In this document: positions 24,063-24,707 of the stretch, in pieces | How the letters are laid out: every line of letters starts with the position of its first letter | Position numbering within the stretch: the first letter of the stretch is position 1 | NCBI RefSeq assembly: GCF_000027125.1 | Contig: NC_017626.1 | Reading direction: 5' to 3' (one strand) | Length of the DNA stretch: 64,000 bases | Origin: Escherichia coli 042 | GTDB lineage: Bacteria; Pseudomonadota; Gammaproteobacteria; Enterobacterales; Enterobacteriaceae | The notes under the pieces: model-generated | Told to the model about the DNA's origin: nothing | The model's database searches: none | What the model saw: the letters and a program-made list of their open reading frames with translations, nothing else | Made by a program: the position numbers and the translations under genes

Positions 24063-24524
24063 TTAACTTGACAAGGTTTTTATTTTTTCGTGTTCGAAAA
24101 ATAAATGTAGCATAGCGTCATTAATATTACCGCCTATAATACAAAAATAGTTATCAAAACCACCATAAAGAGCACCATCATCTGAAATAAAATATGTCAT
24201 ATGCTCAGAAAAACCAACACCAACAGGACATAAACGCTTATTGACCAATGGTTCATAGACTTCAGTTATCCATTTAGAGTCTATCCAACCAGCAGCTTTT
24301 ATTGGATCAAAATCGGATTTATCATACTCATTAGGATCTGAATAAGATTCATGCCGTACTATCAACCCTCCAAACTCTGATAAAAAATCACAAATAATTT
24401 CATTAACAAAATATTTCTTAATGGATAAACACTTTATATATTTATCTATGTTTTCTTTTCTGCCATAGTGCCATCCATTTTGCAACAGGACACTCATCAC
24501 TTGTTTATTCGTTATATGATTCAT
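24063..24524 (-). CDS. hypothetical protein, candidate immunity protein for the adjacent deaminase-like toxin fragment
   Basis: 153 aa ORF starting 3 bp after the toxin-fragment stop, the usual toxin-immunity arrangement. Confidence 0.5.
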   Translation of the reverse strand: MNHITNKQVMSVLLQNGWHYGRKENIDKYIKCLSIKKYFVNEIICDFLSEFGGLIVRHESYSDPNEYDKSDFDPIKAAGWIDSKWITEVYEPLVNKRLCPVGVGFSEHMTYFISDDGALYGGFDNYFCIIGGNINDAMLHLFFEHEKIKTLSS

Positions 24525-24526
24525 AA

Positions 24527-24707
24527 TTACCCCGTTAATACATCAATTCCTAAATATTTGAAAATTTCCTGACAGTTTCTACAGTTCGGAAAAGCACTTC
24601 CATCACCAGTATGAACTGTAGCCATTTCCAAATCATGCAACGATGAATTATCTTTGAGAGCTTTATTCACCGCATCTATTTCAGCACAATTATTAACAGC
24701 CCAAGGC
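24527..24707 (-). pseudogene. C-terminal fragment of a cytidine-deaminase-fold toxin domain, N-terminus removed by H-rpt insertion
   Basis: Peptide ...AVNNCAEIDAV...(31 aa)...FPNCRNCQEIF carries the C/H-A-E ... P-C-x-x-C zinc-ligand spacing of deaminases; its 5' end is the H-rpt copy 2 terminus. Confidence 0.5.

Follow-up and report, generated by a model that had tools for sequence, protein, structure and literature searches.

The window analysed here, a 64-kb stretch of Escherichia coli 042 DNA, is part of the E. coli chromosome and carries an island located between nfrB and cusS; it is collinear with NZ_CP030768, the sole difference being an extra IS1 in the window. Within it, an 860-bp module (23842..24701) lies between two H-rpt copies in the same orientation, whose inner ends form its borders. 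The module holds a piece of YD-repeat core, a SUKH-3 immunity gene and a remnant of an Rhs toxin tip (Table 1). The GC content of the toxin remnant and the immunity gene is 31–37%, versus 50% in the window. Elements of the H-rpt/ISEc1 type are associated with E. coli Rhs elements. Limits of the H-rpt copies were set by self-comparison and by reading of their ends.

Table 1 Features of the module and its flanking elements (coordinates refer to the window)
Feature	Coordinates	Strand	Basis
H-rpt copy 1 (ISEc1, ISAs1 family), of 1291 bp, with an intact transposase ORF of 378 aa and terminal repeats CAGGGAAAGATCA / TAATCTTTCCCTG	22551..23841	minus	self-comparison, RefSeq
YD-repeat core piece; beginning of a further Rhs orphan module, broken off at the left end of H-rpt copy 1	23842..24045	minus	TIGR01643, blastn
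SUKH-3 immunity gene; intact, now orphan, 153 aa, ATG start	24063..24524	minus	Pfam, RefSeq, relatives
Rhs C-terminal toxin-tip remnant (YwqJ-like deaminase)	24527..24706	minus	tblastn, family HMM, blastn to Salmonella enterica L002
H-rpt copy 2, 3' part; abuts the toxin remnant	24702..25203	minus	self-comparison, end reading
IS1; 768 bp, inside H-rpt copy 2, 9-bp target duplication TGGATTATT	25204..25971		sequence comparison
H-rpt copy 2, 5' part	25972..26769	minus	self-comparison

The initial annotation had described two open reading frames here, 24527..24727 and 24063..24524, and both are present on the minus strand. The former encodes 66 aa from a GTG start (ORF listing) and is absent from the RefSeq annotation. 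Its first seven codons (GTG-MRAFVIL) are H-rpt sequence, and toxin-derived sequence begins at 24706 (PWAVNN...). The fragment had been said to start at the terminus of H-rpt copy 2; this is right for the break, which coincides with the end of the element within about 5 bp, but not for the frame, whose first codons still belong to H-rpt. A tblastn search of the window with the complete Salmonella tip matched tip residues 74–132 (88% identity, E 9e-35), and comparison with that tip shows that, of a domain of 132 residues, the remnant has the final 59 codons and the stop. Against a family HMM built without the fragment, it scored 82.4 bits (E 1.8e-27, positions 79–133/135), which places its match to the toxin family far above the chance level.

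The two peptide strings quoted for this frame, AVNNCAEIDAV and FPNCRNCQEIF, were translated correctly, with the C-x-E and C-x-x-C residues in place; the number of residues between them is 25, not 31. The zinc-ligand arrangement read from these strings holds for CAE and CxxC, but the second motif is P-x-C-x-x-C instead of PCxxC; family-wide, only its two Cys are invariant. The catalytic Glu is separated from the first CxxC Cys by 32 residues. In terms of the elements of the AlphaFold2 model (see below), the remnant keeps helix 2 (NCAE), strand 3, helix 3 (CRNC) and the tail, and AlphaFold2 and tblastn together place helix 1, strands 1–2 and the insert among the 73 of 132 tip residues that are gone. 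The N-terminal delivery part, including the Rhs core, has been lost as first proposed, but the loss also extends through those 73 residues of the toxin domain itself. Since both N-terminal sheet strands are among them, we infer that the fragment is inactive: with more than half of the catalytic domain gone, it is almost certainly a dead remnant, in which the C-x-E and C-x-x-C residues have presumably been kept by descent.

Searches of the window for the missing parts were negative. With the adjoining 726-aa Salmonella Rhs core as tblastn query, no Rhs core was matched in the 64 kb; the 5' part of the tip (residues before 74) was found nowhere in the 64-kb window by tblastn, including the far side of the element, and none of the window ORFs of at least 250 aa encodes an Rhs-like protein. 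The 64 kb also contain neither a main Rhs gene nor T6SS genes. The junction of Rhs core, DPxGL and tip is missing from the window, and the E. coli locus has neither the YD-repeat shell nor the PAAR/VgrG-linked N-terminus of a deliverable effector. As judged from its gene content, it is not a functional Rhs effector. The YD-repeat remnant following the immunity gene, also reported initially, was recovered with TIGR01643 (17.2 bits, cut-off 15.8); its DNA is 82% identical to L002 10904..11100 and 90% identical to L002 3222..3372 (blastn), both starts of Rhs orphans in Salmonella.

Complete relatives of the tip were obtained in other genomes. A word-indexed protein search returned four matches with the 62-aa fragment as query and three with the 132-aa tip, all of them short fragments; an exhaustive HMMER scan was required to reveal the family. 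One short Salmonella match of the word-indexed search led to Salmonella enterica GCA_037560425 (L002), where the gene order is Rhs core ORF (7591..9771), loss of 1 bp in a G-run, the ...NLYQYAPDPLGWIDPWGL motif, the 132-residue tip, a 153-aa SUKH-3 gene and a further Rhs orphan with an AHH nuclease. The E. coli locus is collinear with this series of Rhs core, DPWGL, tip, SUKH-3 gene and following Rhs orphan, and E. coli 24706..24061 is 83% identical to L002 10022..10667 (blastn). The Salmonella tip follows directly after DPWGL, at the junction DPWGL/AKK, and is complete, but there is a 1-bp frameshift upstream, in the end of the Rhs core. A single base is missing in the G-run at 9741..9745, between Rhs core and deaminase tip. 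Barring a sequencing error in this homopolymer, even the closest complete copy is a pseudogene. Between its modules, the L002 array has SymE-toxin genes in antisense orientation.

When one genome per species was scanned, six loci came up, among them tips of 65% identity in three Xenorhabdus species. In Xenorhabdus szentirmaii (L010) the tip forms the end of an intact protein of 1449 aa that has PAAR, YD repeats and an Rhs core, i.e., the full-length Rhs protein with this tip that the initial annotation had suggested seeking in other genomes. Another relative, L005, is a locus of VgrG, PAAR-Rhs-tip and SUKH-3. A DPxGL-ending Rhs core directly before the tip was also present in P0006, P0007 and P0011, and TIGR03696 matches in the relatives stop just before the tip.

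Run exhaustively over 1.84 billion representative proteins, HMMER returned 325 relatives with E<=1e-3, of which 85 reached E<=1e-10. In every one of the 325, the domain is C-terminal; the proteins are up to 3250 aa long. An alignment of 35 sequences shows C80, E82, A89, C115 and C118 to be invariant, and the E. coli fragment carries the zinc-ligand/catalytic residues NCAE ... CRNC ([C/H]xE in helix 2, CxxC in helix 3). AlphaFold2, run on the alignment, gave a model with pLDDT 95.1 and pTM 0.88, in which the elements are ordered as helix, two strands, insert with a short helix, CAE helix, strand and CxxC helix; in the Salmonella model the insert occupies approximately residues 52–76, with the helix at 61–66. 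The tip family has the cytidine-deaminase fold, truncated after helix 3/strand 4. A search of the PDB with the family profile retrieved tetrameric cytidine deaminases (E 4e-4). The deaminase-fold reading of the tip is well supported, and the initial proposal of a deaminase-fold toxin tip is borne out by the family HMM score, the invariant C80, E82, C115 and C118, and the predicted fold.

Matches to established models are less strong. The HMM search against deaminase families that had been recommended for the fragment gave only a weak match to the Pfam YwqJ-deaminase model PF14431 (i-E 0.0089, 16.7 bits), with dCMP_cyt_deam_1 at 0.19. For the complete Salmonella tip, the PF14431 match was likewise weak (i-E 0.0013, 19.3 bits, model positions 10–133/138), with dCMP_cyt_deam_1 at 0.0029. 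Across the family, 18 of the 35 aligned members matched PF14431 at E<=1e-3 and 31 of 35 at E<=0.1, the best at 8.6e-9. As the Pfam scores of the fragment and the Salmonella tip themselves are weak, it is by transitive homology and fold that they are assigned to the YwqJ clade. The Gly two residues before Cys in the Gx[CH]xE signature is absent: E. coli and Salmonella have N-N-C-A-E, and in the 35-sequence alignment Gly occupies that position in only some family members (e.g., GNCAE). The insert motif is 'IHP' in most members and 'INS' in Salmonella; in E. coli the region is deleted. Asn replaces both the signature Gly and the insert His in the enterobacterial subgroup. With these two caveats, we assign the tip to the YwqJ-like clade.

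The neighbouring 153-aa ORF had been taken for the cognate immunity gene, and this candidate role is supported by family and neighbourhood. Its product matches Pfam SUKH-3 (PF14433) with i-E 6e-12, over residues 7–141 of 153 and model positions 3–143 of 146, and RefSeq names it 'SUKH-3 domain-containing protein'. Two bases separate the toxin stop codon TAA from the SUKH-3 ATG, just 5' of which lies GGGG. The protein is 84% identical to its Salmonella counterpart next to the tip and 48% identical (E 3e-51) to the Xenorhabdus szentirmaii neighbour, the gene for which starts 3 bases past the tip. Seven of eight relatives inspected (L002, L003, L004, L005, L006, L007 and L010) have a SUKH-3 gene directly downstream of the tip; in the remaining one, P0127, the neighbour is a 175-aa protein without family assignment. 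Tips of the SUKH-3-paired relatives are 40–65% identical to the Salmonella tip, or 34–63% in alignment A1. The E. coli and Salmonella immunity genes differ by 48 synonymous versus 25 non-synonymous codons, a pattern that reflects past constraint, not necessarily present use. NCBIfam has no model matching either the fragment or the immunity protein, and a PDB sequence search with the SUKH-3 protein gave no meaningful match.

The module is described initially as cut by an H-rpt insertion; the position is right, but a simple insertion is the less likely mechanism. RefSeq names the transposase of copy 1 'ISAs1-like element ISEc1 family transposase'. Target-site duplications were looked for around both H-rpt copies and none was found, and the outer sides of the two copies are unrelated (the C-terminal end of a KAS-like gene on one, low-GC ORFs on the other). 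The inner terminal repeat of copy 2 is imperfect (TAATCTTGCCTTG, two mismatches), and the end of this copy overlaps a CCTTGG that the Salmonella toxin gene has as well. Because the missing 5' part of the tip is nowhere in the window, the break is probably not a simple insertion; we rejected simple H-rpt insertion as a demonstrated mechanism on this ground and on the lack of target duplications, and consider an IS-mediated deletion or recombination the more likely rearrangement.

Two further observations concern the elements. The IS1 in copy 2 is absent from collinear RefSeq genomes such as NZ_CP030768 and is therefore specific to the E. coli 042 strain or to a narrow lineage. In P0003, an 85-aa ENA metagenome protein, an opposite-strand H-rpt ORF is fused directly to CAEIDAV..., which would indicate a second, different H-rpt-associated breakpoint in the toxin remnant of some strain.

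Among 5426 complete E. coli genomes, the module is carried by 148, at one chromosomal site and in one place per genome. The whole module with the same breakpoint occurs in 147 of the 148, at 99.7–99.8% identity, and the remaining carrier keeps only 150 bases. All 148 carriers have the H-rpt breakpoint in common, and none has an uncut copy of the toxin. The SUKH-3 ORF is intact in all 147 genomes with the whole module; as these carriers are nearly identical, its intactness is no evidence of selection. E. coli CB6837 (NZ_CM144248.1 / NZ_OZ392453.1), at the equivalent of 22151..27169, has the same outer flanks with a single H-rpt and no module, as would be expected had the two H-rpt copies recombined and the module been lost. 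One apparent occurrence outside E. coli was discarded: the 1153-bp contig JAIJJM010000895.1 of a Collinsella sp. MAG (L011) is 99.8% identical to 23704..24856, including the H-rpt junction, and represents misbinned E. coli DNA.

We regard the segment, with high confidence, as a relic: 59 codons of an Rhs-borne YwqJ-like deaminase tip and an intact SUKH-3 gene, stranded between H-rpt copies. The stretch 23842..24701 would be a piece of a foreign, low-GC array of Rhs 'orphan modules', such as occurs in Salmonella beside type VI secretion genes. Where the system is intact, a predicted zinc-dependent YwqJ-like deaminase of ~130 residues sits on a PAAR-Rhs protein, behind the DPxGL cleavage motif of Rhs. 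By analogy with what is known of the family, the protein would cleave itself at this motif and the tip would be delivered into neighbouring bacteria, while the producer would be shielded by a toxin-binding SUKH-3 protein encoded 2–3 bases downstream. In the E. coli lineage, Rhs shell and PAAR domain have been lost together with the first 73 deaminase residues, and only the last 59 codons have survived, presumably as a non-functional relic unable to form the deaminase beta-sheet.

What the immunity gene does today is less certain. It is plausible, at somewhat less than even chances, that as an orphan it may still protect against incoming toxins of the YwqJ-like Rhs type. A more specific proposal is, in our view, rather doubtful: that the orphan SUKH-3 could be a working shield against Rhs-deaminases of Salmonella, Xenorhabdus-like and other enterobacterial origin, and that the enterobacterial tip might serve as a model for the YwqJ-like substrate, perhaps with a new kind of nucleic-acid or nucleotide editing. 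We give even odds to the alternative that the module is fully decayed and SUKH-3 an unexpressed, non-protective hitch-hiker, kept solely owing to the youth and clonality of the carrier lineage. The minus strand upstream of the gene has no promoter-like site, and the terminator scan of the relevant strand was likewise empty; in the window, the upstream H-rpt copy is itself broken by IS1, the identity among carriers is as high as a young clone would have it, and the genome that lost the module from between the same flanks shows no other apparent change. Against decay, the ORF is intact in 147 genomes, with its coupled start and GGGG ribosome-binding site kept, and read-through transcription from H-rpt is possible; moreover, orphan immunity genes are known to protect in other T6SS systems (e.g., PMC10539506).

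The origin of the segment could also be viewed differently, the two H-rpt copies and the 860 bp between them forming a composite mobile unit that brought in the immunity gene, as opposed to disruption of a resident Rhs array. Two full-length ISEc1 copies in the same orientation do flank a segment of foreign GC content, and the outer sides of the elements have neither the missing 5' part of the toxin nor the remainder of the downstream Rhs orphan. However, the outer ends have no target-site duplication, all 148 genomes carry the segment at a single chromosomal site, the inner terminal repeat of copy 2 is imperfect, and the genome with a single H-rpt is equally explained by homologous deletion; we consider such a unit improbable.

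Far less credible is a minimal toxin–antitoxin pair, in which the 66-aa ORF would still be translated into a small active deaminase toxin held in check by SUKH-3. The frame is open from GTG at 24727, contains all C-x-E and C-x-x-C residues and has kept the geometry of the toxin/SUKH-3 gene pair. Nevertheless, helix 1, strands 1–2 and the insert of the five-element core (73/132 residues) are gone, none of the 35 aligned members is so short N-terminally except for obvious fragments, and the first 7 codons are IS sequence in a frame that RefSeq does not call; an active mini-toxin was rejected on structural grounds. That the fragment is a piece of a housekeeping cytidine/dCMP deaminase or a chance motif, as the weak dCMP_cyt_deam_1 match and the metabolic cytidine deaminases among the best PDB sequence matches might have it, has a negligible probability and is refuted by domain architectures and conserved neighbourhoods, the homologues forming the C-terminal ends of giant proteins, Rhs/PAAR and others, followed by SUKH-3 genes, and the fragment reaching 82 bits against the toxin family HMM.

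The stranded relic can be compared with several known systems. A YwqJ clade with RHS/PAAR modules and SUKH3 immunity was already tabulated in 2011 by Iyer, Zhang, Rogozin & Aravind (Table 1 in PMC3239186). The prototype of the YwqJ-like clade (PF14431) is the B. subtilis LXG toxin YwqJ with its partner YwqK, and the [C/H]xE motif, the RHS/PAAR fusion and the SUKH-3 pairing are common to the clade and the E. coli-type family. YwqJ is toxic and is neutralised by the product of the downstream gene, YwqK (PMC8321402), and Kobayashi 2021 saw neither the chromosome nor rRNA affected by YwqJ (PMC8321402). Points of difference from this clade are that a remnant of 59 codons is all that E. coli has, and that the enterobacterial subgroup matches Pfam weakly (19.3 bits with the complete Salmonella tip) and has Asn in place of Gly and of the insert His. 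The enterobacterial family would be delivered by T6SS Rhs proteins, unlike YwqJ, which takes the T7SS LXG route. DddA of Burkholderia cenocepacia (SCP1.201 clade) and SsdA of Pseudomonas syringae are also T6SS deaminases, but belong to other clades with other immunity families, and act on known substrates, cytosine in dsDNA or ssDNA. To our knowledge, no experiment has so far defined the substrate of YwqJ-like deaminases; for YwqJ, small molecules have been suggested.

The nearest parallel in arrangement is found in Rhs orphan arrays, namely variable region 3 of Salmonella SPI-6 and the E. coli K-12 Rhs elements with H-rpt, in which a piece of Rhs core, a variable tip and an immunity gene follow one another serially, as here, and in which the tips are low in GC, like the E. 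coli module. Unlike these arrays, the E. coli module is isolated between two IS copies, in a window without main Rhs or T6SS genes. The deaminase modules reported so far from SPI-6 belong to other families, BURPS668_1122 with SUKH_5 and DddB-like (PMC10469887, PMC13304343). The enterobacterial YwqJ-like subgroup appears not to have been singled out previously, and it holds nothing unexpected. The locus is a degenerate example of a kind already published: an Rhs/PAAR YwqJ-like tip with SUKH-3 in an Rhs orphan array.

For annotation, a 180-bp stretch left without annotation in about 150 complete E. coli genomes can now be read as the tail of an Rhs deaminase toxin, and the presence of a lone SUKH-3 gene between two IS elements is explained. 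The module is thereby linked to a complete, albeit frameshifted, Salmonella copy and to an intact PAAR-Rhs effector of Xenorhabdus, both usable for determining the substrate of YwqJ-like deaminases and for studying cross-protection by orphan immunity. Beyond annotation, the relevance is small.

Other parts of the island deserve a brief description. Downstream of H-rpt copy 1, 20237..22313 (minus strand, 32% GC) holds four ORFs, of 178 aa (a predicted membrane protein), 142, 148 and 80 aa; these small ORFs had no match in NCBIfam and may be further orphan immunity genes. Beyond H-rpt copy 2, at 26865..27176 (minus), a 103-aa ORF matches a 3-oxoacyl-ACP-synthase-like protein (PRK06147) at its C-terminal end only, positions 272–344 of 349, and looks like another gene truncated at an IS boundary. 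Near cusS, the region 27269..31200 (minus), with gene names as RefSeq gives them for the collinear genome, encodes a PAAR-like (DUF4150) 104-aa protein, a 336-aa hypothetical protein, an HNH/EndoVII toxin-2 protein, and two paralogous 346-aa WD40/YVTN/BNR-like proteins with ~91% DNA identity over 728 bp. This region looks like more orphan toxin/immunity material.
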